Positions 22,587-39,800 of a DNA stretch of 64,000 nt are shown piece after piece. Position numbers and translations under genes: made by a program. This DNA comes from a virus (lineage: Duplodnaviria; Caudoviricetes), in the IMG/VR virus record IMGVR_UViG_3300032327_000953, positions 32,001-96,000 of that record; one strand, given 5' to 3'. A model generated the notes under the pieces. It searched no databases. It had not been told where the DNA came from and saw only the letters and a list, made by a program, of their open reading frames with translations. Each line of letters starts with the position of its first letter. The first letter of the stretch is position 1.

Positions 22587-25500
22587 CTATTTAGACCTTC
22601 TAGGTGTTGATATGCCGCCTTCATTATCCTTAGACAATTGACCAAATGCTTTATCTATTTCATCTAAAATCATAGTTTGCATTCTTTCTTCCATAGTACT
22701 AAATACAGCAGCACCATTAAGATGTACATTAACGTCATGTTGTCCAGTTATGCTAATAACAGGGGGCACATTAAGTTTTAATAGACTTTCTGTAAATTGG
22801 TCAAATTTAGTAGCAAAGTCACCCAAAGCGGTTAATGCGGCCTCATCAAGCTTGATATTTCCAATATTGAGTTGTGATAGTGCTTCTCCAAAAGCTTGTA
22901 CGCTAGTATCAAACTGTTTAATAGCGGCCAAAGTAGCACTATCAAATCCCATGCTATATGAATTAGATACACCACTAGCTGCGCCAACCTCAGCTCCACG
23001 ACTAAAATATCTGGGAGCTATAACTCCACCACGACTAGCATATGATGCTGCTGGTGTTCCTCCTCCTTGAACGGCTGCTGCTATTGCTCCTTGACTAGCA
23101 TTACCACTATTAATAGCTTCTAAAATTGGTAAGTATTTACCAGTAGATTCTCTATTGATCACATATTCACCAGGAGTTAGCATAGCAGGAACAGTATCTG
23201 TGCCTTTTGGAGTCCAATTTACTGGGGCCTTTCCTCCTGCCGCCCTATAAATTAATCCACCCTTTGCTCTGGTTACTGGTTCTTGTTCTCCGGCAACCTT
23301 CTTTACTTCTGATTCACTTGCTGACTGAGGCATTCCTACTTCTTGAGTACCAGCATTAGCTACTGCTTGATCTACTACAGAACCTGATGTTCCTGCTGCT
23401 TGTGTTTCTGGTTTTGGTTGAGAAGCATCTCTTTCCATTGCTGTTATAGTATTATTGGTCCCATGTTTTCTATTTTTCATATAATAAAAACCATATTTGG
23501 TACCTTGAGCTGATGGCATTTGTGCTTCATCATAAATCCTTTCAATAGGATCAAAAGGCACTGTTGTATCACTAGCAGCTTCTCCACTAAGTCCACCAGA
23601 AAACATCTCCCAACCTTTTTTGGCTGTGGGATATAAAGCTTTCATTTCTTGCCAATATTCTTGACCTTCTTTAGTAAAGACTCTTGGTAATGCTCCTGGC
23701 GCAAAATTATCACTGTAAAATTTATTAATTAATCCAACTACACCCTCTGCTTTATCTCTTTCCTTATAATCTCCAGAATTTAATCCAGGTATATTAGCTG
23801 TAGCAGTTGCTAAAAGTTCTTTGACTTTTGTCATAAATTCATCAGGATTATACAGGGCTCCTGCTAATGACTCTGCGCTAATCTCTGGTACTGGCATTCC
23901 AGCTGCTTGTATGGTACTTTTAACACCGCCGATCAATGATGGTAAAACTGCCTCTGGAAATAAGGTTTCTCCTTCTAAACCAACTGGTCTCATTAATAAT
24001 TCATCTCGTGCAGTTAAGAAGGCTTTTAATGAGGTAAGTTGATCTGAATATTCGGACCATAATGTTGACCATTCTTCAGTTCCTGGATCTCCGCTTTTTG
24101 CCCATTTTGTAGCATATCTGTCGCCAAGTTGTAATAATGTTCCTCCAAGAACTTCTCTATAATCTGGTTCGTAGACCGTTTCAAGGTTCATGAATTGATC
24201 TCTAACAGCATCAATATCTGTTGGGAGAGCAATATCAACTAGTTGATTACCGCTAGGACCACCAATACCTTTCATGACTGATGTTGTTCCACTCTTATCA
24301 GTAGAGATAGCTTTTTCACCACCCATAAATTGTTTGTATGTAGCAGCTATAGCTGTCGCTTGGTCCTGATTTAATTTAGCATCACCATTACCGCTAATTA
24401 ATTGATTAAATCTTTGAGCTCCTCTTTGTTGAGCAGCAAAGCCTAGAATGAAGTCTGCAAAATCGTCTTGTTTAATTATCTCTGGGATATTCCAGAATTT
24501 TCTTTTAGCTTCTGTTTGTTTACCTCTAGCGGTTCCATCTTTTTTCTTTACTGTAGCCAATGCAACATTTTCTGTAGTAGTCCATTTATCTAGTTCACTA
24601 CCATACTTACTATAGAGTCTTTCGCTAGCTTTGCTAGATATGGCGGCAGCTCCTTCTTCTCCTGCTGATATCTGACCCAAAAATCTTCCGGCACTCATAT
24701 ACTTGCCAAAAGCAGTCTCAGTAGTCATATTTTGAACTTCTGCTAATTTTTCTTTACTTTGACCTTGTGCTTTTTGAGTTACTGATAATACCTTACTTTT
24801 AATCCATGAGATATAATCTATGGCATCTAATAAATCTGTTTGATTCTTAATTTCTTCCGGTGGACTCATTCCATCTTCTGATGCTGCTTTCATCCAATCT
24901 GAAGATGTTTTTAAACCACTGATCATTGGGATATCAACTTTTTTGACATTCTGCCATACAGTATTACCAAGAGAAGGAATATGTTCTGGTTTGATAAGAA
25001 TCTGAGATGCTTCTTGCTGCATCTTCTTTCTTTTTTCGTCTTTGCTCATGGATGTATCTTGAATAGCAGCTAACTGCATAGCTTCAGAAATTAATGGTAA
25101 TTTGCTAATAATCAAATCTCTAGCATCACTATATGGAATATTTTCTCCTAATTTATAGTCATCGCTATAAAATAATGTATTAGCAGTCTTTAATAATGAC
25201 GCAGCTCCAGACTGTTCTTGAGCATCAGTCTTAACTCCCTCTCTACGACTAGTTCTAGCAGATCTTATGTCACTAGATGCTTTGAATGCTTTTTCTGCAA
25301 CTATTGGATTATACATAGTGGCTAGCTTTATTCCAGCCAAAGAAAAATCTGGAATATCAAAATTACTTACTGCCCATTTTTGCACAGCAGTATCCAGTGA
25401 TTCTTCATTGCTAAAGTATGGTAGTTCGCTATCTGCACTCTGATTTAAAGTTTGGAATGGACTCACTGCTTGAGTACCACGATCTACAGTTCTACCTCTA

Positions 25501-28500
25501 ATAAATAGACCCTTTGTAGCAACATCAGCCCCATCTGTTAAAAATGATTTCTTAGCTTTTGGATCATATTCTGTATCTTCAGGATTTAATAGTGGTATAG
25601 ATTCAAATTTCTGAAAATCAAAAAATACAGGAAGTTTTCTCTTGGATGATGGTAAATCAATCATTTTATTATAAGAAGTTTGGGGAGATATATTTAATCC
25701 AATCTTCTCTTGCATGATTTGTTCTTGAGCTTTTTCCATTTGTGCTTCTGCAACTGCCCCAATTAATCCAGTATCTGTTGTCCATGGAAGAGGTTCAAAT
25801 TTAGTGCTATCCGTACCTTGGAAAACTTTGAATCCTGTACTATTACCACCATCCCATATTTTTCCCTCTGCGGCTGCTTTTTTATTGGTTTCGCTAGAAA
25901 TAATTGATGCCCATCTGCTTCTAACAGCTTTCGTATAAACTGTAAGCATATCATTGGTTTCGCCAGATGATTCTTTTGGTTTTGCATCACCAACTGGTTT
26001 ATCTGTTGTAGAATAACCCCATTTAAATAAATCTTTTTTGTCATCAGCTAATTCTGATTTATTGAAAGAATATTTGAATTTAGTACCTTCAGCTAATGCA
26101 GTTAATATTGCGTTTGTCTTACTTAGTTTTTGTGCTGCTGGGGGTTTAGTTGTCCAGAATTTAGGATCATAACCACCAGCTTTATCCGTTGTGGTCAATG
26201 GTTTAGTTTCTGATAAGTCGTCGTAATAATCTCTAAATATCTTTTGTAAAACTGAGAAATCTTCAATATTTCCTTGGCCTGCTAGTGCTGCAGTATTGGA
26301 GAAGTCCAGCCCCTTTGCTTTATAAAAAGAGTTAGCTGCTTCTGATTTTTCATCTGAACCTAGTGTTGGATATCCACCTGGAGTAAATTGTAGTAGATTA
26401 TCTACTGAACTTAATTTTGGAAAATCTTCAATATTAAGATCACCAGCTGATTTAACAGAGCTGGCAAACATAAACTTTTGCCCATTCTCTTTAGATTCTG
26501 GACCAAAGCCATATTGTGAATATGCTGTGCCTCCAATAGTTACTTTTGCTTTTGGTGCTGTCTTAACTTTTTCCCATTTTGCCGCTTTGTCTAGAGCATT
26601 CATCCATGGAGTAATAGCATTAAATTGATCTTTAGCTTCATCTAATGTTAATGTATCTGCTCCTGTATTTATTGTATTTCCTAAAATAGTCTCATTTATC
26701 AACTTTGAAGGATACTTGAAATCAGACATTACCATAGACTCTTTAAGTTTATCCATAACAGTATTTGCGGCATTAGGAACTGCTCCGGTAGCAATAGCAT
26801 TACCGACTCCTCCAATAGCACCAATAGTACCTCCACCAACTGTTCCGGCAGCTGCTCCGGCAACCGTATTCCCGAATTTTCTTGCAACAATTTGCTGTCC
26901 AGTAGCACCCCAACCAATTTTTGATAATATTGATTCTGGAATTAAATATTTGATTAAGTCTACTGTTGGTCCTCTAACTTTATCGCTAATCCAATCGAAT
27001 AGCCTTTTACCTCCAGGAAATCTTTCAAATATTCCTGGAATAAAAGAACCCAACTTAGCAACCACTGATTTGGGCATAAATCTAGTCATCCATTTCAATG
27101 CACCAGCAACACCCTTACCGATAAAGCCTGCTCCTGGAATAGGAAGTAAATTAGTAATAGCTCCTAAACCTTCTAGTGCTCCTCCAATAAAATCTCTATC
27201 AACAAATATTTTCTTGACTGCATCGATACCAGAAACAACAGCACCTAAACCAGGAACAAATTTCATAGCTTCCCATATGTATCCAGCAGCATTAGCAGCT
27301 ATACCATCTTGTGCAAAACCCATGCTTGTCATGGCCGAATGAGCACTAGAGGTTGATCCGGTAAAATTACTAGCAACAGCTCCTGCCAATGCATCAGAAT
27401 TTCCTGTAGCAGATGCTCCAAGAGCGGCACCTTTAATAGCTCCTTTACCAGCACTATCAAGAGCATTAGATGCTACATTACGAGATAAAGTAAAATCGGG
27501 CAATACTCCAAAAATAGGTTCGTTGATTTGACCAGTAATTTTATCTAATAATGGATTACCCATTGAACTATATAGTTTATCAGAAGTTCCATTAAATGTT
27601 GGTATGGAGTATGGTTTAATAAACTGTATAAATCCTTCATCTGATTTTAACTTTTCCAAATTTGCTTTAACATCATTCTCTTTACCTCCAGGACCAAAAG
27701 TAGCATAATCATTAAATTTAGTATATAGCGTATTCTTAGCTGGGTCAGCATCTGCAAATCTTCCTTGATCTGGAGGCTTTAGCATGTCTGATACCCATCC
27801 ACCCTCAGAATAATATTTAACACTACCACCCTTAGAATATCCATTATTTATAGCATGTAATAGGGGACCATTAGCTGAGGCGGCACTCTTGTTAACAACA
27901 AATTCACCGGGCGTTAACATTGCCGGAACAGTATCTGAGCCTTTAGGTTTGAAAATTGAACCTCCAACTGCTCTATATTCTACAACTCCTCCTGTTGCCA
28001 TTCCTGGAATATCTGGGGTTTCTCTGGCACCACTAGATACTGTTGTAACCTTAGTGACTCCAGACTGTAAGTGGTTATTAAGTTTATTGATTCCTGCTGC
28101 TGTATCTTTAGCATTAGCATTAGCATTAGCTTGTTGTACTCCACTTAAAGAATTAGAAAAAGCAGTTTGTGCTTGTGTTCCAATTTGTTGTGCTAAAGTA
28201 CCATCAAGCATTGCTAGATAGTGATTAGCTTGAACCTGTAAAGCATTTGCTTCTTTGTATTGTTGTATAGCTTCTGCCATCTGAGGATCTTGTTCTGGAT
28301 TTCTCAAACCTTCCAAAACTTGATTAAACATGGGGCTCATTTCAACCCCAGATTCGGTCATCATTGATTCTAGCATATTGGCTTTGAGCTGATTTTGATT
28401 GTCTCCAAGATATGGCGCAAGCATCTTGAATGCTTCCATTGTGTCTCCGCGATCTTGAGCGGCAGCTTGATCAGCAGCTTCTTGAGCATCCTGCATACTT

Positions 28501-31500
28501 CCACCATTCTTTAAAGATTCATTATATGCTTCTTGAACTCTTATAGAATCCCACATATTATTGGCTTGACCATTCATATTACGGTCAAGACGCTCAAAAG
28601 ATTGATTAAGTTTAGCTTGTTCTTTTGGAGTTGATGTTACAAATCTTTCTAGTATGCCCAAACCAGCTTCATTCTTAGCTTTGATCTCTGACATTTTTGC
28701 TAATGCAGCATCAGCCACTTCTGTGCTTTCAGCTAATGATTTTAGTGCAGCATAGTTTTCTCTTAATTGCATTGTTGTACCAGAAAGTTGGCCAGTAAAT
28801 GCCATTAGATCTTTGGCACCCTTTGGTCCTCTTTGTGCAGCAGCGTCAACCGAGGCTTGTTGATTTTGTCTGGTCATTTCTAAACGACCAATATTATTCA
28901 TTATTTGTCTTGGATCAGACGTTCCTGCCTGACTCATTACCCCAGCATTAGCTGCACTCTTTGATGATTCAAAGGATATATTCTTACCCAAATTTTTTGC
29001 TAGGGTCATCTCTCCTCTAGTTCTGATATCGTCTGCTCTTCTCATTTTTTCATTAGAACTGATCTGTAATGCTACAGCCTCATTCATAGACTGGGCATAA
29101 TTATTTACTGACTGTTGATAAAATTCTAATGCTTTTAATGCGGCTTCTTGGGCTTTTTTAGTTGATTGAACAGTTTTACTAAATGCTGAAGCTTCTCCAA
29201 AGACTTGCTGATAGTTGATTTTATCTTCACCGCTCTTTTGAGATTCAGAAAGAGATGACGATATATCCTTAGATAAAGCTTTCTTTAAACCTTCATCAAT
29301 ATTTAGATTGCTTAAATCTTTCTCTATATTTTGGCTTATCCTAGCTTCAATTTTACCGCTACTAGCGCCTGGATCTTCTTGTATAGTTCTATTAATAGTG
29401 GATAATATTGTATTCTCTAAGTCTGGACCAAACTGTAATAATCCCTTCATATCATTAGCTTGTGGGCCAAAAAATTGAGACCCAACATCGGCAGCCTTTG
29501 ATCTTTCATCAGCACTGTACATATTAGGATTTTGCAGTACATTGGATGCGTCGATTCTCGTTGTTCCTATTTTAGCATCTCCAGTCATGGATGCTTTTAA
29601 TAAATCTGTCTGGTCTGCTAGCTTACTCATAGAATATGTAACAACATTAATACTTTGTTCCATATTGCCCAACATGCGCTCCAAACCATAAAGCATTTTG
29701 GAGCTTTCATTATTTGCTTCTTCGCTATTTTTATTTCTAATATGCTTAACTTCTTGATCTCTAACATTATTAGCAGCTACTAGACTCATTAGTTCTTGTT
29801 TTCTAACATCTCTCGCTTGCTGAGATAATGATAGATCAGCATCTATTGATCTTAATTGCTGTTCAGTTTCAGCATTGGAACGAGCTAAAACTTCTGCTTG
29901 CTGTTTCCAGTCTGGTGAATTCATAATATCTGAAGAAGATTCTCCCTTTCTAAATCTTTCTGATATTACTCTTTGTTGTAGTTCTGCTGGTTTTTTAAAT
30001 TTCTCAGCAGTTTCGGCTGCTTTTTGTGGAATTAATTCTCTTGTATATTGTTCTTGGGTTCGTCCAGTAGCGTCGGTCAAAGATCCAATATATGCCATCA
30101 TACCTTTTTTATCTAATATATCAGCTCTTTGAGCTCTGCTTTCTTGTCCACCTGCACCAAGAGCTAATCCTTCTCCAATAATATTAGTCATTGCCCATTT
30201 AGGATTAGTGCTAGTAATATCAGATTGAGTTCTAGCTTCTTTTGCGGCATTCATTATTGCTGTGTTGGCTATCTGTAACTGTCCAGCATTATCTATTGTA
30301 TTTCTACTATATGTATCTAAAGCTTGTTCAGCATATTTTAGATTGTTGTCAAAAGCTTTAATTGAAGCATCTAATTTATTTTGTCGTAGAGCATCTGTCA
30401 TATCAATGAACAATGATGCCATTGCATTTCCGGCTGTAACAGCAATACCCACCGGTCCTGCTAATGCTGATAGCGCTCCAGATACACCACTAACAATTTG
30501 TGGTAAATTACCAGCTAGTTTACCAACCAAGCCACCACCTTTGCCAAGACCAGAAGCTATTCTATTTAAGAATCCGCTAGCTGCAGAACTAGAGAATCCA
30601 GAAGCAAAACCCTCTACTTTACGACCAGCATCAATCAAATAGCTAGAAAAATTATCTAAGTATTTTTTCGTATTATCAGATAAAGCAAAATCGCTAAAAG
30701 TTTGTATAGCCCCATTTGCCGCTACAAATAGTGCGGTAGTATTTCCAATAGATCCAGATAAGCTTTGTAATGCTTTTCCAGCTAAATTACCAGTACCAAC
30801 AAAGCTAGCCAACATACTACTACCAAAAGCAAATGATGCTGATAATTTAGTAAAATTAGTTGTCATTGTGCTAATAGCATCAGCATTATCTTTAGCCACT
30901 TTAGAATAATCTGTTGTATCTGGTGCTGGCGCTCCACCTCTGGCTAGTGATTCTGCTGCTGGTTTAATATTTCCGGGAGTCAAAGTAGCTCCACCACGAA
31001 CCTTAGCTATTCTAGCAGTAGCTTCTGTTATTGCTGCTGTTTCTTCAGCTGTTGCTCCTACTAGTCTTTGTTGAGCTATTGCTTGTGCTGCTGCTTGACT
31101 AGCTGCATCTGCCCTAGCTTTAGCTTCTGATGCTGTTGCTCCAGCCAATCTTTCTGCTTGATATGTTTGAATCTTAACTGCTTTTGCGGCAGCTTCCATT
31201 TCCATCATGTATCGTTGAATTGCTGCTTCTGCATCTCCAGATAATGGATTTCCTGTTGGTGGTCCCGGAGGTATTGGTGGACTTCCTGATCCTCCAGCAC
31301 CAGATGGGGTCGGACCTGTGGGCATACCAAAAGCATCAGGAGTATCAAATGGACTATATGTATAAGGAGCCTTTTGCATTGATCCTGGATATCCTAAACC
31401 GCCACCAGAAGGCTTTGGTGCTGCTGCTGATGATCCTGCTAGACCTCCCAAAAGATCTTCTCTTGTAAGACCATTAAGTACCTTCAAGAAAGAATCTAAT

Positions 31501-34500
31501 TGTGCAGTATCTTTAGAGAGACTCTCTGCCATTGCTTTTGCACCAATTTCCACAAGTTCAAACGATGGAATATTATTGGCAACGCCATTTCTCTTTCCTC
31601 CACCGGTAGCCTCATATCCAACCATTCGTTGAACCATTTGCAGCATAACCTTGGGATCTTGCATTGGATTTCCAAGATGATACTTATCCGAACTTTGATC
31701 AGGATTCTTGCTCATGAATAATTGCTTGCCAATATCCCAATTAGCCCAACTCTGACTTTGACCAGCAGCACTAATTTGACCAGAAGGAGTCTTTACTCCG
31801 GTCATAACAGAAGAGAACATGTCTCTAAGCTGTTTAACCAATGCGTCTACCTGAGCAGGATCTTGATGAGCTAACTCTGCAGCATATTCTCTGCCTCTAC
31901 CGCTAATGGGAGTATCTTTACCAGACACATCGCTATAGTTCATTCTTTTTTCATAGAAGTCAATATCTCTTAAACTAAGATCTGGTTCTACTGGAGCAGA
32001 TGGTGTTGATGCCGCTACATTTAAAGGAGTTGGTTGACGACCACCAACAGCACTTCTCATCATGGTCATCAGATCTAATGCTTCAAATGGGGCTTTTCCT
32101 TCAGCTTCTCTTTCGGCATTTTTTCGTTTACGACCGAATGTTGCTTCTCTGCCAGTTTTAGCATCTGACACAGTATCTCTCATATTCTCGATATCATTAG
32201 AAGAATATCCACGAGAAGAGGCTATTTCTGATTGTCTAACTCTAGCTCTATCTAACTCGATATCTCCAAGAGCTTTATTTCCAGCACTTGTCATTGCTCT
32301 CATAGAATTTACAACATCATCACCTAAAGTAGCAAAATTACTTCTTACAACTTTTTGTATCTCAATTAGAGATTTTCTCATAGTTTCCCAAGAACTTGTA
32401 TCAATAGTTGGTAAATCTATTTTATCTACAGCACTACTGACTTCATCGCTAAAAGTTGCCATTACAGCAGCCATACTAGATCTAAATATAGACATTTCTG
32501 CAGGAGTCACCGCTTCTCCACCCATCTCGAATCTTTGTATTCCAACAGCTCCACCTTTATTATATCGTCCATATTTATTCATGGTATTTAATTTACCATA
32601 ACCAATCTTCTTAGCTTGTGCTTGTGGAACTACTAATTCTCCTGGAGTTAATAATGCTGGAACTTCTCCTCCGGAAGCAAACCCTTGAGATCCTCCTAGT
32701 CCTAATTTTGCAACACTACTCTTTCGTATAACAAAATCACCAGCAGTTAATGAAGCAGGGACGGTGTCTCTGTTTCCTGTTCCGGGAACAATACCGCCAC
32801 TAGCAAATTTGGGGGTACGAGCAGCAAAATAAGATAATGCCATTGCTCTAGAGTCTGGTTTAGCATCGGGTCTTACAACATCCGGACCTTTAATTAAATT
32901 AGGGCTTTTACTATAACCAGTTTGTAATACCCATGCTGGATCATCAGCTGGTGGCCACGTTTCTTTTTTTCCATATAATTTTGGATCTAATAGAGCTTCA
33001 TTATGTGTCCAGTCTTTTGGTTCTAAGGGGGTTTTTTTAACATCTCCCCTATTTTTGAAATAATATTCCCATACTTTTTTAGCATCACCACTAACTACTG
33101 ATCTGTCAGAAGTTAACATTGCTCCTTTTTCGGTGACTGCTTCCATCAATATGTCATAAAGTCTTGGGCCATATCCTTTGGTGGCACTAGATAAGCCAAC
33201 ATAATATAGATTATCTCTTAATTTATAAGCACTAGCATATCCTTGTCTACTATTCTCTTGTCCACTCTTTAGATATCCAGCACTAATCATTCCAGAATCT
33301 TCAGTAATACTAATTTTACCGTATTGTTTTTCTTTTTTCTGTTCAGCTTCAGCAACTCCACCCACAGCAAATCTTCTAACTCTGCCACCCAAGGCTAATT
33401 TAACAGCCTCTGCTCCACCAGTTAGATAACTTCCAATCTCTTCTCTAACTTTCTCTAAACTACTACCATCAATTGTTCTTTTAACTTCTGTTGGAATACC
33501 AGGGTCAATACCAGGAAAGAATTGGGCTGCACTACCTAAACCGTCAGGATAGTCTATGGCTCTGTTCTGTTTAGCGTCTGGTCTTACTGGAGCGCCTAAA
33601 ATAGCCAAAGCTTTTTCTATTATGGCACCCTCAATATTACCCTGACCCATTTTCTCATCTAGTTCTGATGTTGTAGATTGTGGTTCAATATATTGAAATC
33701 CTTTTTTACCAGCTTTATGAGCAGCTCTGATGTTATCTAAGTTATCATCAATAAGTTTTTCTTGTTGTTGTAAATTAGCAGCTTTTAATGATGCAATATT
33801 GCTACTAGCTCCACCACTAACACCAGTAACATCATCTTCAGAATAAGGTAAACCTAAACGCTGTAGTGTTGAGGCAAGAAGATCAGCCGTACTTTGTGGT
33901 CTGGCTGTTAGTATTCTGGTTCTTTTAATGAACGATGGGTCTTGGTCTATTAAGGATTTTAATTTATCTGCTAGTCTTGTTGTTCTTGCTTTTCCAAGAG
34001 CTGCTTTTACTGCATCTCTATTTGAATATTGTGGGATATCAGGCTTGCCAGCAGCATCAAGAATGTCTGCTCCCTCAACTAATGTTTTGTCAAAATCAAA
34101 AGCTAAGTTTTCGCCACCACCAAAAATATTTTTATTCTGTACATTCTCTGCAAATTTTTGAGCAAGTGCTGATGACTCCTTCTGCATTTGTCTTGCTTCT
34201 TCCAAATATGTGCTGCCAAAACCTCTGGCGGTAGCATAAACATCAGTGCCTCCAATATTCCATTCAAATTCTTTTTCATAATCCATTGGTAATAAACCAG
34301 CAATACCAAAATGAAGAGCCTTAGCTTGATACTCTTCTAATCTTTTAGCTTCTGCAGCATCTCTTATACCTTTTGCATCTAAAGCTTTATTGATAAAGTC
34401 TGCTGCTTGTTCTAAGCCTTTACCAGCTTTAATATTTCCTGCCTGTAATAGCGAGCTTAATGTTCTATCTCCACTACCAATACCAAGTATTCTTTTAACT

Positions 34501-37500
34501 CCAGCGGGACCACCCAATCCACCCAACTGTTCTAGTATAACATCCTGAATACTTTTACTTTTTTCTTGGGCCAATTGAGCAACTCTACCAACTGGCATTT
34601 GAGCTTGTGAGCTTTGACCCATAACTCTCATTGCCGGAACATTGCCCATAGTTGCTGGTGCAGAAAAGTCTAGAGCGTAGTTTTGTGGATCTTTTTGGGC
34701 TAATGCATCTAATAATTTATATGGGGTAAATCCAGTAGCAGATTTCATCTTTTGTTTTTTAGTTCTTAACTCTTTTAGAACTTCTACTTTAGCTGCATAT
34801 TCTGGATCTTCCTCTATTTTTTTGGAATCTATTCTTTTAATTCCAAGAGCTTCTATCTCTTTATCTATGTGGCTCATTTCCGCTTGAGCTTCTTTTTGAG
34901 CTTGTTCTATAAGAGATGGTAAAACACTAGCTCTATTTTGTATTTTTCCAATATTATTAGAAACGAGATCATATACGCCAGGAGATAATACTGATTGAAG
35001 TTTAGCCATATCTCCAGCTATAATTAAATCTCTAACCATTGTTCCACTAATGCCGCCAGTTCTTTCTATACTCTTAACGTCATATCCAGCTTGTTTATAT
35101 TTTGCTGTTTGATCTTCTGTTTTATCTGCAACAAAGGCTGTGCTACCTTTACCAGGAATTAATACTTGTCTTCTGTCGGAACCTTGTTGAGTGATATCAA
35201 AACCTTGAGGAACCTCAAAATCTCTTGGTTTGGGAAGTACAGTGGCACCCTTTGCTCCGAAACCAGCCTTAGCCAATAATACTCTAGCGTCTTGATCAAA
35301 TATGGCTGTGCGATAAGATGATGGATCTACGGCCTCATTAGCTCCAACTAATGCTATAAAATCTTCTGGAGGAATACCCATAGCAGCAGCAGCATCCATA
35401 ATCGATTCATGACCAGCTGTAGTTGGAGCAAATCCACCCCATGTGAAACCAATTCTCTTCTTAATAATATCTACTAATTCATTGCCACTCTTTCTTCTTA
35501 GTCTACCAGAACCGCTTCTTCCTAATACTGTAGATTTAGCTCCTAGCTTATCTGATAATAATGCCTCGCCAACAGCAGTATCTGTTGAAACGCCCATGGT
35601 AGTTCCAGGTTGACGACCCTCTAAACCGATCCCCGTAACATCTCTTGACCCTCTTTGATCTTTTACTCTGCTTCTTTCTGCACTAGTGGTTGAACTTAAT
35701 GTATATGCTCTATCAACATCTCCAAAGAAATCATCCATTTTAGTTTTACTTACACTACTAGTAAGAATTAATATTTCAGTAGCCCTATCAATATCTTCTG
35801 GACTAAGAATTGGAAATCTTTCTGTTTGTCTTAGTTTAGCGCTATCTGTGCCTTGACCACGAGCTAATGTTGTTTTACCGCTACCAGCAACGCCATATAT
35901 TGCTCTTAGTTTTTGAATATTAGCAGATTTTCGCGCATTAACAGCTAGCTTGGTAAGATAGTCTGAATAGATTCTTGGACCTTCAGATCCTGTTTCTTTC
36001 ATTCCTTTTTCTACAACAGCTTTATTAGCTTCATTGGCTATAACATCATAATCAATATATCCTACTTTTCTTTGAGCTACTCCACCTTTTTCAAATTTTT
36101 GAATTATACCGCCAAGATTTTTTTCTTCAAATCTACCTGTTAATAGTTTTTTCTCTTTTAGTTTTGCTACTAGATCAGGAGCCTTAAACATTGGCCTACC
36201 AAAAACATCATACTGATTAGTACCTTTAAATATCTTTGTTAAGTCATCTGAACTTTTACTGGAAGCCCACTCTGTTGTTAGATCTTTAGCCTGCTGGGCT
36301 TTCTTTTTTTCTTTTGCTGTATAGTTTTTAGCTCCTTTACCCTTAACTTCATATGTATCAGCACCAACCAAACGAGTTAAAGTTTTATATGGAGTAGCTG
36401 TTGGAGTAAAATCAACCCTTAAACTGTCTCCATCGTACACACTATCTAGTTCTACTTTAGAAACACCACCACCCTTTTTGAATTTCTGAACACCATTATT
36501 TATTTTATGAAGATTACTGGATCCAACAGCTCTTGCAGATTTTTTATTAACAACGAACTCGCCAGGAGTTAATAGTGCAGGAACGCTATCGGTATTACCT
36601 GATCCTGGAACGCTACCTCCCCTAGCAAATTTTCTAACTACTCCACCACGATTTAAGGTAGGGCCTCCACCACCAGGAGGTAAACTAGAAAGATTATTAT
36701 TCAGAGATGTAATCTCATTCAATAGTTGTGTCATAACACCATTGCCAAGATTATCTATTGAGGCAGTTAGTGGGTTAATAGCTGTGGTAAGATTATTTAA
36801 TGCTGTTGTTGTTTTATCAAGAGCAGCACTATTGTCAGTATATGAATCAGCTATCTTTTGGGATTTTGCGGCGGCTGCTTGATCCTGACCTCCAGCTGGG
36901 GATCCATTTGGTTTAACTTTTCTTAGTCCTCCAACGAAACCACCAACAAAACTAGTTAATGCTTTGGCTCCTTTGATAGCTCCAATAGCGGTAATAATTG
37001 GTAGTAATGGTTTAGCAACATCTGCAACTTTGATAAAGGTATTAGCTAGACTCAATCCAAGGCTAACTAATGTTTTAAAACTATCACTATTGCCAATATC
37101 TCTAATTAATGCAACAAAGGATTCTCTTGTTTTTGAAAATTGAACTGCTAATGATGCTTGTGCTTTCACAGCATCCATAGCTAATGATGATTGTCCTCTT
37201 TGAGCCACACCCAATGCTTGTTGAGCAGTAGCGAACTCTTGGATTAATGGCAGAACCTTGCCGATCTGTCTGAAACCACCAAGTTCTTCTACAATTCTGG
37301 AAAAGCTAGTATCTCTTGGATCTAGCTTACCCAATCCTTCGCTTAATAATTTAACTGCTTTATAAGCTCCTACGAATTTACCTTCAACATCAAGAAGATT
37401 AACACCATATTCTTTTAAGGCGTCAATGGTATCTTCTCTTTGAATTCTAGTAAAGATGGTTCTTAAACCGGTAGCAATAGTTTCTGCACTTTCACGAGTG

Positions 37501-38465
37501 GTAGCTCGTACGCTAGTAAATACCGCAATAAATTCATTTAGAGCATCTGTTCCTTGACTAACGCCTTTACTTGCAGCAGCAAACACACCACCGGTACGCT
37601 GAATAGCGGTAATAATATCACTAGCTTCAACAGCAAAACCAGCAGCAACAGCATTAATAGAACCTAATGCTTTATCTAAATCTTCTGTACTAATTTTGAA
37701 CTGACGCATTAATGCGATACTACCTTCGACCGTATCATTAAGGTTGTCGAATGATGGGGCCAAAGCTGTTAATGCCAATGCTTTAAGGGCTTGATCTGTT
37801 TCTCTGGCGCTAAAACCAGCTTGTGCTAATGTATCAGATATCTTAATAAGATCAGAAGAAGCAACTCCCAATCCTGTGGATAATCCAGTAATGGTATCTG
37901 TTATTCTACTAAGCTGATCATATGATTCGCCAGTAATCTGAGTTAATCTTACTAACTGTCTATCAAAATCAATAAACTCTTGAGTGGCCTTCGATACAGC
38001 ATTAAGTAGTCCAAAGATTGCTCCTGTGGCAAAATTAAATGCGGCAAAACGACGAACAGCAAGAGCAGACTGTCTACCAAATTCTTCCATCTCACTTCTT
38101 GCTTCTACTGTTCCTTTTTTCAATTTAGCCATCTGCTGAGTGGTGGCTTGTGCTGATGATACTATCTGGGACATGGAGGAGTTTGATCCATTAAGGGCTC
38201 CTCCAAGACTATTGATAGCACCAACCAAACTAGTGATATTGGTGGTTGTTGATGCAGAAGCTTGGGCTGTTATTTGTAGTTCTTTATTTAGACGGGCCAA
38301 AGCATTTGATGTATTAAGTATTGATCTTTCTGCTGATTTATCTAACTTAACTTTAACGGTAGCGTCTACGGTACCAATCTCTCTTCTAATAGCAGATGCT
38401 ATTTGTCTGAGATTACCTGGTCCTCTTAAATTAAGTTCAGCTGTAAGATTAAAACCTTTTGCCAT
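22587..38465 (-). CDS. Tail tape measure protein (5292 aa) with inserted enzymatic domains (SNase-like, P-loop kinase, HIGH nucleotidyltransferase, HAD phosphatase, GNAT)
   Basis: Lies after the tail tube and chaperone block. N-terminal Ala/Leu-rich TMP core (FDRQLVRLTQITG...SDTLAQAGFSA...INAVAAGFAV...ETIATGLRTIFTRI) and five DxVPAxLTxG(E/D) TMP motifs. Enzyme motifs are listed under findings. Confidence 0.92.
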   Translation of the reverse strand: MAKGFNLTAELNLRGPGNLRQIASAIRREIGTVDATVKVKLDKSAERSILNTSNALARLNKELQITAQASASTTTNITSLVGAINSLGGALNGSNSSMSQIVSSAQATTQQMAKLKKGTVEARSEMEEFGRQSALAVRRFAAFNFATGAIFGLLNAVSKATQEFIDFDRQLVRLTQITGESYDQLSRITDTITGLSTGLGVASSDLIKISDTLAQAGFSARETDQALKALALTALAPSFDNLNDTVEGSIALMRQFKISTEDLDKALGSINAVAAGFAVEASDIITAIQRTGGVFAAASKGVSQGTDALNEFIAVFTSVRATTRESAETIATGLRTIFTRIQREDTIDALKEYGVNLLDVEGKFVGAYKAVKLLSEGLGKLDPRDTSFSRIVEELGGFRQIGKVLPLIQEFATAQQALGVAQRGQSSLAMDAVKAQASLAVQFSKTRESFVALIRDIGNSDSFKTLVSLGLSLANTFIKVADVAKPLLPIITAIGAIKGAKALTSFVGGFVGGLRKVKPNGSPAGGQDQAAAAKSQKIADSYTDNSAALDKTTTALNNLTTAINPLTASIDNLGNGVMTQLLNEITSLNNNLSSLPPGGGGPTLNRGGVVRKFARGGSVPGSGNTDSVPALLTPGEFVVNKKSARAVGSSNLHKINNGVQKFKKGGGVSKVELDSVYDGDSLRVDFTPTATPYKTLTRLVGADTYEVKGKGAKNYTAKEKKKAQQAKDLTTEWASSKSSDDLTKIFKGTNQYDVFGRPMFKAPDLVAKLKEKKLLTGRFEEKNLGGIIQKFEKGGVAQRKVGYIDYDVIANEANKAVVEKGMKETGSEGPRIYSDYLTKLAVNARKSANIQKLRAIYGVAGSGKTTLARGQGTDSAKLRQTERFPILSPEDIDRATEILILTSSVSKTKMDDFFGDVDRAYTLSSTTSAERSRVKDQRGSRDVTGIGLEGRQPGTTMGVSTDTAVGEALLSDKLGAKSTVLGRSGSGRLRRKSGNELVDIIKKRIGFTWGGFAPTTAGHESIMDAAAAMGIPPEDFIALVGANEAVDPSSYRTAIFDQDARVLLAKAGFGAKGATVLPKPRDFEVPQGFDITQQGSDRRQVLIPGKGSTAFVADKTEDQTAKYKQAGYDVKSIERTGGISGTMVRDLIIAGDMAKLQSVLSPGVYDLVSNNIGKIQNRASVLPSLIEQAQKEAQAEMSHIDKEIEALGIKRIDSKKIEEDPEYAAKVEVLKELRTKKQKMKSATGFTPYKLLDALAQKDPQNYALDFSAPATMGNVPAMRVMGQSSQAQMPVGRVAQLAQEKSKSIQDVILEQLGGLGGPAGVKRILGIGSGDRTLSSLLQAGNIKAGKGLEQAADFINKALDAKGIRDAAEAKRLEEYQAKALHFGIAGLLPMDYEKEFEWNIGGTDVYATARGFGSTYLEEARQMQKESSALAQKFAENVQNKNIFGGGENLAFDFDKTLVEGADILDAAGKPDIPQYSNRDAVKAALGKARTTRLADKLKSLIDQDPSFIKRTRILTARPQSTADLLASTLQRLGLPYSEDDVTGVSGGASSNIASLKAANLQQQEKLIDDNLDNIRAAHKAGKKGFQYIEPQSTTSELDEKMGQGNIEGAIIEKALAILGAPVRPDAKQNRAIDYPDGLGSAAQFFPGIDPGIPTEVKRTIDGSSLEKVREEIGSYLTGGAEAVKLALGGRVRRFAVGGVAEAEQKKEKQYGKISITEDSGMISAGYLKSGQENSRQGYASAYKLRDNLYYVGLSSATKGYGPRLYDILMEAVTEKGAMLTSDRSVVSGDAKKVWEYYFKNRGDVKKTPLEPKDWTHNEALLDPKLYGKKETWPPADDPAWVLQTGYSKSPNLIKGPDVVRPDAKPDSRAMALSYFAARTPKFASGGIVPGTGNRDTVPASLTAGDFVIRKSSVAKLGLGGSQGFASGGEVPALLTPGELVVPQAQAKKIGYGKLNTMNKYGRYNKGGAVGIQRFEMGGEAVTPAEMSIFRSSMAAVMATFSDEVSSAVDKIDLPTIDTSSWETMRKSLIEIQKVVRSNFATLGDDVVNSMRAMTSAGNKALGDIELDRARVRQSEIASSRGYSSNDIENMRDTVSDAKTGREATFGRKRKNAEREAEGKAPFEALDLMTMMRSAVGGRQPTPLNVAASTPSAPVEPDLSLRDIDFYEKRMNYSDVSGKDTPISGRGREYAAELAHQDPAQVDALVKQLRDMFSSVMTGVKTPSGQISAAGQSQSWANWDIGKQLFMSKNPDQSSDKYHLGNPMQDPKVMLQMVQRMVGYEATGGGKRNGVANNIPSFELVEIGAKAMAESLSKDTAQLDSFLKVLNGLTREDLLGGLAGSSAAAPKPSGGGLGYPGSMQKAPYTYSPFDTPDAFGMPTGPTPSGAGGSGSPPIPPGPPTGNPLSGDAEAAIQRYMMEMEAAAKAVKIQTYQAERLAGATASEAKARADAASQAAAQAIAQQRLVGATAEETAAITEATARIAKVRGGATLTPGNIKPAAESLARGGAPAPDTTDYSKVAKDNADAISTMTTNFTKLSASFAFGSSMLASFVGTGNLAGKALQSLSGSIGNTTALFVAANGAIQTFSDFALSDNTKKYLDNFSSYLIDAGRKVEGFASGFSSSAASGFLNRIASGLGKGGGLVGKLAGNLPQIVSGVSGALSALAGPVGIAVTAGNAMASLFIDMTDALRQNKLDASIKAFDNNLKYAEQALDTYSRNTIDNAGQLQIANTAIMNAAKEARTQSDITSTNPKWAMTNIIGEGLALGAGGQESRAQRADILDKKGMMAYIGSLTDATGRTQEQYTRELIPQKAAETAEKFKKPAELQQRVISERFRKGESSSDIMNSPDWKQQAEVLARSNAETEQQLRSIDADLSLSQQARDVRKQELMSLVAANNVRDQEVKHIRNKNSEEANNESSKMLYGLERMLGNMEQSINVVTYSMSKLADQTDLLKASMTGDAKIGTTRIDASNVLQNPNMYSADERSKAADVGSQFFGPQANDMKGLLQFGPDLENTILSTINRTIQEDPGASSGKIEARISQNIEKDLSNLNIDEGLKKALSKDISSSLSESQKSGEDKINYQQVFGEASAFSKTVQSTKKAQEAALKALEFYQQSVNNYAQSMNEAVALQISSNEKMRRADDIRTRGEMTLAKNLGKNISFESSKSAANAGVMSQAGTSDPRQIMNNIGRLEMTRQNQQASVDAAAQRGPKGAKDLMAFTGQLSGTTMQLRENYAALKSLAESTEVADAALAKMSEIKAKNEAGLGILERFVTSTPKEQAKLNQSFERLDRNMNGQANNMWDSIRVQEAYNESLKNGGSMQDAQEAADQAAAQDRGDTMEAFKMLAPYLGDNQNQLKANMLESMMTESGVEMSPMFNQVLEGLRNPEQDPQMAEAIQQYKEANALQVQANHYLAMLDGTLAQQIGTQAQTAFSNSLSGVQQANANANAKDTAAGINKLNNHLQSGVTKVTTVSSGARETPDIPGMATGGVVEYRAVGGSIFKPKGSDTVPAMLTPGEFVVNKSAASANGPLLHAINNGYSKGGSVKYYSEGGWVSDMLKPPDQGRFADADPAKNTLYTKFNDYATFGPGGKENDVKANLEKLKSDEGFIQFIKPYSIPTFNGTSDKLYSSMGNPLLDKITGQINEPIFGVLPDFTLSRNVASNALDSAGKGAIKGAALGASATGNSDALAGAVASNFTGSTSSAHSAMTSMGFAQDGIAANAAGYIWEAMKFVPGLGAVVSGIDAVKKIFVDRDFIGGALEGLGAITNLLPIPGAGFIGKGVAGALKWMTRFMPKSVVAKLGSFIPGIFERFPGGKRLFDWISDKVRGPTVDLIKYLIPESILSKIGWGATGQQIVARKFGNTVAGAAAGTVGGGTIGAIGGVGNAIATGAVPNAANTVMDKLKESMVMSDFKYPSKLINETILGNTINTGADTLTLDEAKDQFNAITPWMNALDKAAKWEKVKTAPKAKVTIGGTAYSQYGFGPESKENGQKFMFASSVKSAGDLNIEDFPKLSSVDNLLQFTPGGYPTLGSDEKSEAANSFYKAKGLDFSNTAALAGQGNIEDFSVLQKIFRDYYDDLSETKPLTTTDKAGGYDPKFWTTKPPAAQKLSKTNAILTALAEGTKFKYSFNKSELADDKKDLFKWGYSTTDKPVGDAKPKESSGETNDMLTVYTKAVRSRWASIISSETNKKAAAEGKIWDGGNSTGFKVFQGTDSTKFEPLPWTTDTGLIGAVAEAQMEKAQEQIMQEKIGLNISPQTSYNKMIDLPSSKRKLPVFFDFQKFESIPLLNPEDTEYDPKAKKSFLTDGADVATKGLFIRGRTVDRGTQAVSPFQTLNQSADSELPYFSNEESLDTAVQKWAVSNFDIPDFSLAGIKLATMYNPIVAEKAFKASSDIRSARTSRREGVKTDAQEQSGAASLLKTANTLFYSDDYKLGENIPYSDARDLIISKLPLISEAMQLAAIQDTSMSKDEKRKKMQQEASQILIKPEHIPSLGNTVWQNVKKVDIPMISGLKTSSDWMKAASEDGMSPPEEIKNQTDLLDAIDYISWIKSKVLSVTQKAQGQSKEKLAEVQNMTTETAFGKYMSAGRFLGQISAGEEGAAAISSKASERLYSKYGSELDKWTTTENVALATVKKKDGTARGKQTEAKRKFWNIPEIIKQDDFADFILGFAAQQRGAQRFNQLISGNGDAKLNQDQATAIAATYKQFMGGEKAISTDKSGTTSVMKGIGGPSGNQLVDIALPTDIDAVRDQFMNLETVYEPDYREVLGGTLLQLGDRYATKWAKSGDPGTEEWSTLWSEYSDQLTSLKAFLTARDELLMRPVGLEGETLFPEAVLPSLIGGVKSTIQAAGMPVPEISAESLAGALYNPDEFMTKVKELLATATANIPGLNSGDYKERDKAEGVVGLINKFYSDNFAPGALPRVFTKEGQEYWQEMKALYPTAKKGWEMFSGGLSGEAASDTTVPFDPIERIYDEAQMPSAQGTKYGFYYMKNRKHGTNNTITAMERDASQPKPETQAAGTSGSVVDQAVANAGTQEVGMPQSASESEVKKVAGEQEPVTRAKGGLIYRAAGGKAPVNWTPKGTDTVPAMLTPGEYVINRESTGKYLPILEAINSGNASQGAIAAAVQGGGTPAASYASRGGVIAPRYFSRGAEVGAASGVSNSYSMGFDSATLAAIKQFDTSVQAFGEALSQLNIGNIKLDEAALTALGDFATKFDQFTESLLKLNVPPVISITGQHDVNVHLNGAAVFSTMEERMQTMILDEIDKAFGQLSKDNEGGISTPRRSK

Positions 38466-38562: not shown

Positions 38563-39489
38563 CTAAGATGCTTTAACAACAGATTCTGTTTCAACAGTGG
38601 TAACTGCAACATCGACTGCTGGTGTGGACGTAGCTGTTGATGCTTCTGGTTGTGGAGTTTCTTCTGCTTTTGGCTCATTTTTCACATCTTCTTCTAAAAT
38701 AATTGGATTACCATCTTCGTCTAAGAATGGCTTATATTCAACAACATACTCGCCATCCTTATCAACCCTATTGCCAAACTTATCCACAAAGTTACCCTTA
38801 TCATCAACATATCTACCATTCTCATCAACTAGTCTACCATCGGCATCTGTTAGTTGTCCCTGTTTATTAATGTAGCGTAGCTTTTCATCAATAAACTTAA
38901 ATTTCTTCAAGAACTTATTTTCCGGCAAATTCAATTCATAGTCATTATCCAATCCATAAAGCATGGAAGCCAAATGCTGAGCAGCCACTATAGCAACTTC
39001 CTCATTTGACCTGTTTAAATAGTCCTCCATATTGCTAAAATATGGCTGTTTGTTACTATCATTATACACCAAGCATGATGATACAAGATAGTTAAATCTA
39101 GCGTTGTCTGCTTGGCCTTCAGCGCTATGATTATCAAGAGATGTTCTTACTGAAATTAATGATCTAATTTCCTCTCTATCTTTCTTCATCTGAATAGCAA
39201 TCTCCTTGGCTTCCTTTAGGGAGATACCACCCTTTGCTAACTTTCTTTCAGAATCAAGAATATCCTGCTGTAGCTTGGTGAACTTGATCTGTTTATCCTG
39301 ATTCCACAGACCTTGATCCTCAAGCAACTCATCCATCTTGGCTCTTACCACGCATTTGGACTTGATAGCGTCTGTAAAGGCTTGGTTATAAACTTTCTGA
39401 GCTTCCCTCTGATCATTTATAGAGGGGGTTTTAACAAGAAATTCTGTTTCCTTTTCATTAATCTTAATCTTGAATGTCTTAGTCTTCAT
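38563..39489 (-). CDS. Putative tail assembly chaperone-region protein (308 aa)
   Basis: Position between tail tube and TMP; charged helical sequence; acidic Thr/Ala-rich tail; ATGA overlap with the upstream gene. Confidence 0.5.
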   Translation of the reverse strand: MKTKTFKIKINEKETEFLVKTPSINDQREAQKVYNQAFTDAIKSKCVVRAKMDELLEDQGLWNQDKQIKFTKLQQDILDSERKLAKGGISLKEAKEIAIQMKKDREEIRSLISVRTSLDNHSAEGQADNARFNYLVSSCLVYNDSNKQPYFSNMEDYLNRSNEEVAIVAAQHLASMLYGLDNDYELNLPENKFLKKFKFIDEKLRYINKQGQLTDADGRLVDENGRYVDDKGNFVDKFGNRVDKDGEYVVEYKPFLDEDGNPIILEEDVKNEPKAEETPQPEASTATSTPAVDVAVTTVETESVVKAS

Positions 39490-39800
39490 TGATCATCTCC
39501 TGTCTGTGGTGGATAACTGGGCTTAACGTAAAACTTGTAATTGTACTTGTATTTTGACCTAATAAATCTGGTAACTTCTGAAATAGCAGAACGCATCTGA
39601 TGATTGCCGTTATTTAATATAAGCATTCTAGTACGTTCCCACAAGTCTCTAAAATCTAATTCTTTGTCTGTAAGATCTTCTTCATTTTTATCAAGACCCC
39701 ACAAATGTCCAAAAGATTCTTCAAATTTAGCTAGTGATCCAATCATAGTTGTTTGAAATCTTTTTTCTAGATTATAATATACTTCATTATCTGGATTCAT
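39486..39800 (-). CDS. Hypothetical protein (104 aa), tail assembly region
   Basis: Translationally coupled to its neighbours (2-nt gap upstream, ATGA overlap downstream). Confidence 0.55.
   Translation of the reverse strand: MNPDNEVYYNLEKRFQTTMIGSLAKFEESFGHLWGLDKNEEDLTDKELDFRDLWERTRMLILNNGNHQMRSAISEVTRFIRSKYKYNYKFYVKPSYPPQTGDDQ

Follow-up and report, generated by a model that had tools for sequence, protein, structure and literature searches.

To our knowledge, pb2 of phage T5 is the only tape measure protein (TMP) whose cleavage has been mapped exactly. Cleavage after R1127 yields pb2* and pb2C (Linares et al., 2023, PMC10038345), and in the T5-like phage DT57C the cleaved C-terminal piece remains in the tip after ejection (PMC10713586). 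The TMP of phage lambda, gpH, matures to gpH* and gpHC (Tsui and Hendrix, 1983; PMC12617516); gpH* has a mass of ~78 kDa, and a ~14 kDa fragment stems from the glycine-rich region (PMC12617516). Thermus phage P23-45 encodes a 5,002-amino acid (aa) TMP, gp96, which is fused to a virion RNA polymerase (Chaban et al., 2024, PMC10770324). Polyvalent proteins, which occur in phages and conjugative elements, carry nuclease, GNAT, ADP-ribosyltransferase (ART), and kinase-type domains with a likely counter-defence function; the paper describing them mentions neither TMPs nor a universal seam peptide (Iyer et al., 2017, PMC5512222). The subject of this study is a glycine-rich peptide motif that recurs in the 5,292-aa TMP (here P0001) of an uncultured lake phage with a 238-kb genome (IMG/VR record IMGVR_UViG_3300032327_000953). 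The window, i.e., the whole analysed stretch of 64,000 nucleotides (nt), comprises bases 32001–96000 of this record, a complete virus sequence of 238,135 bp with direct terminal repeats. The motif serves as the universal connector, or seam, in giant modular TMPs that form a large family. As a pattern, there is strong support for its marking the places at which cassettes were gained, lost, or replaced in related phages.

P0001 was recognized as a giant TMP because of its N-terminal PhageMin_Tail domain (Pfam PF10145, aa 190–385, E 2.6e-23, above the cut-off) and its matches to PHROG tape-measure families. Its gene is the following:

22587–38465, minus strand: TMP gene (P0001), one open reading frame (ORF) of 5,292 codons

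Module and seam in P0001

The preliminary description of this DNA had named 12 short motifs of the (K/R)FxxGG type. All of them were located at the expected places, without exception within the ORF on the minus strand. They are listed by the window position of the first base and the first residue in P0001:

36635, minus strand: RKFARGG, aa 611
36488, minus strand: QKFKKGG, aa 660
36101, minus strand: QKFEKGG, aa 789
33377, minus strand: RRFAVGG, aa 1697
32810, minus strand: KFASGG, aa 1886
32684, minus strand: GFASGG, aa 1928
32567, minus strand: RYNKGG, aa 1967
32537, minus strand: QRFEMGG, aa 1977
27980, minus strand: EYRAVGG, aa 3496
27818, minus strand: KYYSEGG, aa 3550
23252, minus strand: IYRAAGG, aa 5072
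23012, minus strand: RYFSRG, aa 5152

The last of these had been counted among the copies, but its second glycine is absent. The longer motif D-x-VPA-x-LT-x-G-[ED]-x-V was found at aa 626, 1900, 3511, and 5090; a fifth copy, EVPALLTPGELV at aa 1934, is degenerate. These sites fit the positions given before (~36560, 32750, 27910, 23170, and 32650, respectively). The pattern [KR][FY]..GG occurs seven times in P0001 where 0.30 occurrences are expected, and GG.{3,6}[FY].{2,3}GG nine times versus 0.19. None of 2,000 composition-preserving shuffles of P0001 reached either count. Neither motif nor module is carried by any other ORF of the whole 238-kb genome.

The short copies had been regarded as separate elements. 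This holds for two intact stand-alone seams, whereas most of the others are the flanks of one module of ~85 aa. The motif thus has two tiers, namely the module, present in five copies, and a stand-alone seam of 13 aa. The module consists of seam-like flanks around an invariant DTVPAMLTPGEFV core, and the long motif is that core. The family consensus starts with GG-IV-Y-A-S-GG, followed by ~8 residues and GTDTVPAMLTPGEFVVNK; after another ~12 residues it continues with L-x-x-IN-SG and Y-S-K-GG-VV-K-Y-x-x-x-GG. Scores of the module hidden Markov model (HMM) are given for each copy:

36453–36659, minus strand: module copy 1, aa 603–671, with RKFARGG, DSVPALLTPGEFV, and QKFKKGG; 72.9 bits
32697–32822, minus strand: module copy 2a, shortened, aa 1882–1923; 26.3 bits
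32502–32669, minus strand: module copy 2b, aa 1933–1988; 54.4 bits
27768–28022, minus strand: module copy 3, aa 3482–3566; 104.5 bits
23040–23312, minus strand: module copy 4, aa 5052–5142; 88.8 bits

Copy 4 ends 150 aa ahead of the C-terminus of P0001. The stand-alone seam, GG-x-[VI]-Q-[KR]-F-x-x-GG, is represented by two intact copies and one decayed copy; the predicted local distance difference test (pLDDT) of AlphaFold2 is given for the former:

36081–36119, minus strand: stand-alone seam NLGGIIQKFEKGG, aa 783–795; pLDDT <50 at aa 780–794
33357–33395, minus strand: stand-alone seam ALGGRVRRFAVGG, aa 1691–1703; pLDDT <50 at aa 1678–1711
34563–34592, minus strand: decayed seam VGRVAQLAQE, aa 1292–1301; intact in relatives

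AlphaFold2 was run with family alignments on aa 596–1000 and aa 1640–1995 of P0001. Confident domains were obtained at aa 667–779, 796–1000+, and 1712–1884. The domains between seams and modules reached pLDDT values of 80–96, and values <50 were found at aa 596–641, 656–666, 780–794, 1678–1711, and 1885–1944, which are exactly the seams and modules. The cargo fenced in this way is as follows:

36129–36467, minus strand: cargo 1, staphylococcal-nuclease-like, aa 667–779; AlphaFold2 pLDDT ~80–96
33396–36080, minus strand: cargo 2, block of P-loop kinase-like, HIGH-nucleotidyltransferase-like, and HAD-like parts, aa 796–1690
32814–33332, minus strand: cargo 3, GNAT-like, aa 1712–1884; AlphaFold2 pLDDT ~86–95

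The top Foldseek matches of cargo 1 were staphylococcal nucleases (probability 1.00, E 1e-3, TM(target) 0.45–0.51). In cargo 2, which was modelled in part (aa 796–1000 of 796–1690), the folded domain matched P-loop NTPases. Inspection of its translation revealed Walker A, T-x-GH, ISGTMVR, and DFDKT motifs, and there was a weak match to Pfam PF16581. Cargo 3 matched many GNAT acetyltransferases with probabilities of 0.75–0.99, every E-value being ≥0.02. The domain calls of the preliminary description and the motif boundaries that it had placed around them therefore hold in AlphaFold2 and Foldseek, with the folds at moderate confidence. Pfam and NCBIfam scans of modules and cargo gave no family over the module and weak hints for the nucleotidyltransferase and GNAT parts. 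A PDB sequence search with aa 600–2000 of P0001 and with the module profile returned no match.

Cassette borders in the TMP family

A search of 5.8 billion proteins yielded 119 homologous TMPs of 3,245–7,724 aa, all of them metagenomic and encoded on contigs of up to 241 kb; with P0001 they make up the 120 proteins of the family analyses. The module is present in every member, in 2–8 copies per protein (mean 4.5). The median start of the first module is at aa 560, and this start precedes aa 700 in 99% of the members, while the last module ends at a median of 148 aa ahead of the C-terminus. Across the 120 proteins, 417 stand-alone seams were found with the consensus N-x-GG-x-[VI]-Q-[KR]-F-A-x-GG-V-A, in which Q is conserved in 53%, K/R in 81%, and F in 75% of the copies. 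A need for flexibility alone would not conserve these residues.

Ends of high-scoring segment pairs (HSPs) and large gaps in the alignments with P0001 clustered at aa 500–540, 660–680, 760–800, 1260–1300, 1680–1720, 1880–2000, 3540–3580, and 5040–5080. At the seam ALGGRVRRFAVGG alone, 77 HSP ends or large-gap edges fell within aa 1680–1719. The homology to the kinase cassette begins at aa 783–785 in over 20 homologues, where this point corresponds to subject positions from 591 to 2127. In an all-against-all comparison (HSPs ≥200 aa), 30.6% of 68,176 HSP ends were located ≤15 aa from a motif compared to 4.9% expected, and after clustering of the ends the value was still 20.1% versus 4.9%; the enrichment was seen in all 120 proteins. 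Homology breakpoints on the motif are thus 4–6 times commoner than expected. Insertions gave the same picture. Among 194 distinct events with flanks of ≥45% identity, both junctions were ≤15 aa from a motif in 50 (mean 0.63 and maximum 5 with randomized motif positions), and at least one junction was on a motif in 138 (null mean 21.9). In P0004 and P0005, for example, a further cassette of 430 aa separates the nuclease from the kinase block, with its own seam as a fence (GG-MVQRFADGG ... GG-KVQKFAEGG).

Motif-delimited segments, grouped into families at ≥75% mutual coverage, recur beside many different neighbours. The nuclease family (F2, 39 members) has 16 distinct downstream neighbour families, the kinase-block family (F5, 24 members) has 13 distinct upstream and 12 distinct downstream ones, and the GNAT family (F3, 32 members) has 15 upstream and 18 downstream. 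The counts of HSP ends, insertions, and segment families ignore shared descent, so independent events are fewer than the raw numbers suggest. Free-standing genes were also sought; there was no match for the nuclease cassette, and the three matches for the kinase block all lie on contigs of 2.5–5 kb and are probably fragments. Precomputed Pfam annotations of the relatives P0012, P0018, P0026–P0028, P0057, and P0102 show other cassettes between the same seams, with EF-hand (PF13202, PF00036), SHD1 (PF03983), ADP-ribosyltransferase exoenzyme (PF03496), and PF28597 domains.

The breakpoint cluster at aa 1260–1300 is without a motif in P0001. The decayed seam adjoins the nucleotidyltransferase-like and HAD-like parts and lies between them. 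Relatives have GG-L-I-Q-[KR]-F-x-x-GG exactly where P0001 reads VGRVAQLAQE, and in P0024 ~1,070 aa are inserted at this position. As the relatives have their seam there, seams can evidently be lost, after which two cassettes remain connected through a degenerate stretch.

The borders are equally sharp in the DNA. The IMG/VR locus L008 and the kinase-to-HAD cassette of P0001 have a 2.7-kb block in common (80% nucleotide identity; nt 2346–5072 of the P0001 coding sequence, aa 783–1690). In L008, the block begins 7 nt ahead of the first GG codon in the upstream seam and ends 5 nt before the next seam, at aa 1690.7 on the P0001 side. Among 79 loci, starts of DNA HSPs were enriched from –15 to +30 nt of seam starts (38 versus ~11 expected) and absent just upstream of seams, and HSP ends accumulated in the 60 nt before the seam. 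Seven pairs of seams with identical peptides had one changed flank; the downstream flank was kept in five of them, among which fall the three pairs with every codon identical. These few recent DNA-level cases suggest that the mobile unit is the seam plus its downstream cargo. At the protein level, upstream and downstream travel of the seam was ambiguous (identity of 0.42 and 0.46 versus a background of 0.34).

The DNA of the seams themselves is poorly alike. Within the P0001 gene, the 45-nt seam segments are 24–62% identical, share at most 12 identical bases, and vary freely in their glycine codons. The long-motif copies are 64–84% identical over 50 nt, and the five module cores share at most 11 identical bases. 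Between loci, the longest exact match of seam DNA has a median of 7 nt. Exact matches of 22–36 nt are common between module cores of unrelated phages. When synonymous codons were drawn from the family's own usage, matches of ≥22 nt occurred in 153 ± 21 pairs compared to 173 observed, and those of ≥30 nt in 8 ± 4 compared to 16. Islands of exact DNA match, of which 119 of 150 lie in module cores, had been considered as evidence of DNA-level exchange and were discarded, since this resampling explains nearly all of them. As seam DNA is not conserved beyond coding needs, the seam is a peptide-level element and not a DNA homology site.

An exception to this is the seam GGAVQSFMAGG, which was observed in three unrelated contexts (L006/L007, L008, and L021) with 8–9 of 11 codons identical versus ~4.6 expected. 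It includes a 29-nt exact match (L006:2950–2978 and L008:7027–7055) with unrelated flanks on both sides (23–31% identity). Seams may occasionally persist while both neighbours change, although this sample is too small to carry weight.

The preliminary description had offered a cassette-swapping joint as one meaning of the motif. At residue and nucleotide resolution, indels and replacements in homologues indeed break at the motif; the mechanism through DNA homology that it had attached to this was not supported, given the low similarity of the seam DNA. There is good support for the seam as a conserved connector peptide at the borders of swappable cassettes.

The module is a widespread building block that is absent from Pfam-A and NCBIfam. 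Out of 1.84 billion searched, its profile matched 15,536 cluster representatives at E ≤ 1e-3, of which 864 reached E ≤ 1e-30; the best 150 of the 15,536 matches have 3–12 copies each in proteins of 935–7,872 aa. A megablast search of the TMP gene against cultured phages gave no match. With aa 560–2000, tblastn found single-module matches only, in seven records, among them TMPs of Gordonia phages. Literature searches returned no description of the seam.

Possible roles of the seam

Considering the analogy with lambda and T5, cleavage is tentatively proposed as the most likely function of the seam, at somewhat below an even chance. The seam may be kept because one common partner recognizes it, and this partner would most likely be the machinery that matures TMPs by cleavage, as in lambda gpH and T5 pb2. 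Cutting of the TMP would yield an N-terminal ruler part, free enzymes, and a C-terminal tip anchor, which would leave the tail before the DNA does. Selection could then account for cassette swapping at seams, with surviving joints being those that keep a working seam between intact domains, and DNA homology would not be needed to explain it.

Residues 733–796 of lambda gpH match the module HMM, modestly (17.8 bits, i-E 1.5e-5, 122 sequences searched), and the layout of KFHFATGG, then PAGIVHRGEFV, then LMRGYATGG is the same as in the module. Computed masses place the gpH cut at about residues 710–730, immediately upstream of KFHFATGG (730–737). Because the module derives from the region in which lambda gpH is cut, the motif may be a cutting site. 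The place of the last module near the C-terminus, as in lambda, was likewise counted in favour of cleavage, and the C-terminal piece of DT57C that stays in the tip provides a rationale for a cut at this last module. In T5 pb2, the cut site FVPR/AEGGMMYPG...GEHGTEVV (the slash marks the cut) is two residues before GG-MM-Y-P-G. A more detailed version of the cleavage proposal is that giant TMPs are polyproteins which are cut at the N-terminal edge of the seam (the T5 register) inside the assembled tail, by a self-catalysed or tube-assisted reaction without a dedicated protease; the seam-tagged enzymes would be ejected ahead of the DNA, and the same reaction would convert lambda gpH to gpH*. In this specific form we consider the proposal unlikely.

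Several results weigh against cleavage. T5 pb2 had no domain above the threshold of the module HMM, and its likeness to a seam plus a compressed core is visual only. Searches of the complete 238-kb genome gave no match to C39, C48, C5, JAB, NlpC/P60, or S78 peptidases; those for S77 and OTU peptidases carried no information, as their controls failed. The sole protease found is a ClpP-like gene (C1:195570–196061, L004; PF00574, 65.6 bits) outside the window and ~125 kb from the TMP gene, which is probably the prohead protease. A Pfam scan gave no peptidase family at E ≤ 0.01 anywhere in P0001, of which ~3,100 aa are without assignment. Moreover, the ruler has to be intact until the tube is built and its internal sites are then enclosed, out of reach of an external protease, so that cutting would require either self-cleavage or an enzyme assembled together with the tail. 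Unlike the Arg of T5, the residue preceding the first GG varies among the seams of the family. Finally, a seam decayed in the P0001 lineage without loss of the flanking domains, and hence not every seam is indispensable.

Beside the T5 cut, at about residues 1128–1150 of pb2 (L001), GEHGTEVV aligns by eye with the PGEFVV core of the module; it was read earlier as a metallopeptidase motif. It may be a diverged module copy rather than a peptidase signature, a homology that the HMM does not support.

The seam could instead be a structural connector that is never cut and stays covalent, which we regard as possible but somewhat unlikely. It might dock to the tube lumen, the tail assembly chaperone, or sister chains; provide slack that lets three to six copies of each globular cargo stack in the narrow lumen; or serve at the N-terminus as a tag for loading into the lumen, as in effectors of contractile injection systems. 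AlphaFold2 leaves monomeric seams and modules without structure, which fits an element that folds only on a partner, and the conserved hydrophobic and aromatic residues between the glycine pairs fit a short pairing strand. The counterpart of the module region in lambda gpH (~690–817) is unresolved in cryo-EM (PMC12617516). The missing protease and the inaccessibility of internal sites after tube assembly also agree with an uncut connector. Periodic docking, however, is at odds with the irregular spacing of seams in P0001 (129, 908, 188, and ~1,500 aa) and of modules in the family (39–3,535 aa), and Q-[KR]-F would not be conserved in a linker that only gives slack. Furthermore, in lambda and T5, the only relatives studied by experiment, the cut falls at this element or right beside it.

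That the seam is mainly a recombination joint in the DNA, with short homology driving exchange between co-infecting phages and the peptide being incidental, appears improbable to us; such recombination would be a minor contributor. The coincidence of breakpoints with seams, the 29-nt match of GGAVQSFMAGG in its three unrelated contexts, and the exact runs of up to 36 nt shared by module cores of different phages speak for such a joint. Yet the seam copies in the P0001 gene, and those of different loci, have little DNA in common, the exact matches of module cores are nearly those that resampled synonymous codons give, and the conservation of particular residues across thousands of proteins indicates selection on the peptide. 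Chance, or look-alike glycine-rich linkers of low complexity, has practically no probability left. P0001 is indeed rich in glycine (9.4%) and in GG pairs (69 versus 47 expected), but this reading is refuted by the shuffled sequences, the conserved non-glycine positions, the module HMM scores of up to 104 bits, and the 864 proteins at E ≤ 1e-30.

Should the seam prove to be a signal for processing or loading, thousands of long-tailed phages would possess a plug-in route for delivering ready-made enzymes via the tail. The cargo would include nuclease-, kinase-, acetyltransferase-, and ADP-ribosyltransferase-like domains, and TMPs would be a delivery route besides being rulers. Cleavage at the seam would also provide a concrete hypothesis on the lambda gpH cut, a question since the 1980s, with the N-terminal edge of the KFHFATGG...GEFV module as the predicted site. 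Even if the seam is never cut, cataloguing it would improve the annotation of TMPs and show where cargo domains start and end.

The ORFs adjoining the TMP gene have the same orientation and are very large (2,465, 1,467, and at least 2,207 aa). Except for one Laminin_G_3 domain, these neighbours had no Pfam or PHROG tail annotation. Tail assembly chaperones are usually encoded just upstream of the tape measure gene; the two ORFs at this place had no family match in Pfam or PHROG, and the neighbouring ORFs yielded no candidate for a chaperone or a protease. The region downstream of the TMP gene is probably a tail-tip apparatus, nearly wholly unannotated. The surroundings of the gene are as follows:

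1–22573, minus strand: the giant ORFs and smaller ones, downstream of the TMP gene
38563–39800, minus strand: ORFs of 104 and 308 aa directly upstream of the TMP gene, with a 4-nt overlap

Comparison with known systems

Double-glycine leaders with C39 peptidases, and polyprotein sites of the adenain, ULP, and African swine fever virus pS273R type, resemble the seam in their G-G end, in a hydrophobic or aromatic residue a few positions upstream, and in a precursor that gives several products. They differ from it in several respects. The spacing of hydrophobic residues in C39 leaders is not that of the seam, the cognate C39, C48, or C5 peptidase was not found in the complete genome, and the T5 precedent is a cut before the motif and not after GG as in GG-directed processing.

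In T5 pb2, a C-terminal piece with enzymatic character is split off from the ruler by the cut, and GG-MM-Y-P-G with GE..VV resembles a seam with a module core. Unlike P0001, pb2 has a single site and does not match the module profile significantly, and its P1 Arg has no conserved counterpart in the P0001 family. P23-45 gp96 is a giant TMP like those of the P0001 family and carries a working enzyme into the host. It differs in having one N-terminal enzyme and no reported processing (PMC10770324); furthermore, gp96 showed no module HMM match and only two chance-level matches to the seam pattern.

Polyvalent proteins (Iyer et al., 2017, PMC5512222) resemble P0001 in being very large, delivered with the virion, and composed of shuffled enzymatic domains. 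P0001 shares this trait with its nuclease-like, P-loop, and GNAT-like folds and with cassette families that have 12–18 distinct neighbour families. Whereas polyvalent proteins often carry their own MPTase peptidase, none was found in P0001.

Lambda gpH resembles P0001 in having a module near the C-terminus, ahead of a tip-binding tail, with KFHFATGG and GYATGG flanks and a GEFV core. It is a protein of 853 aa with one module and no cargo, whereas P0001 has five modules plus seams that fence enzyme-like domains. The link from the cleavage of gpH to P0001 is positional only, and P0001 exceeds the lambda pattern by four internal module copies.

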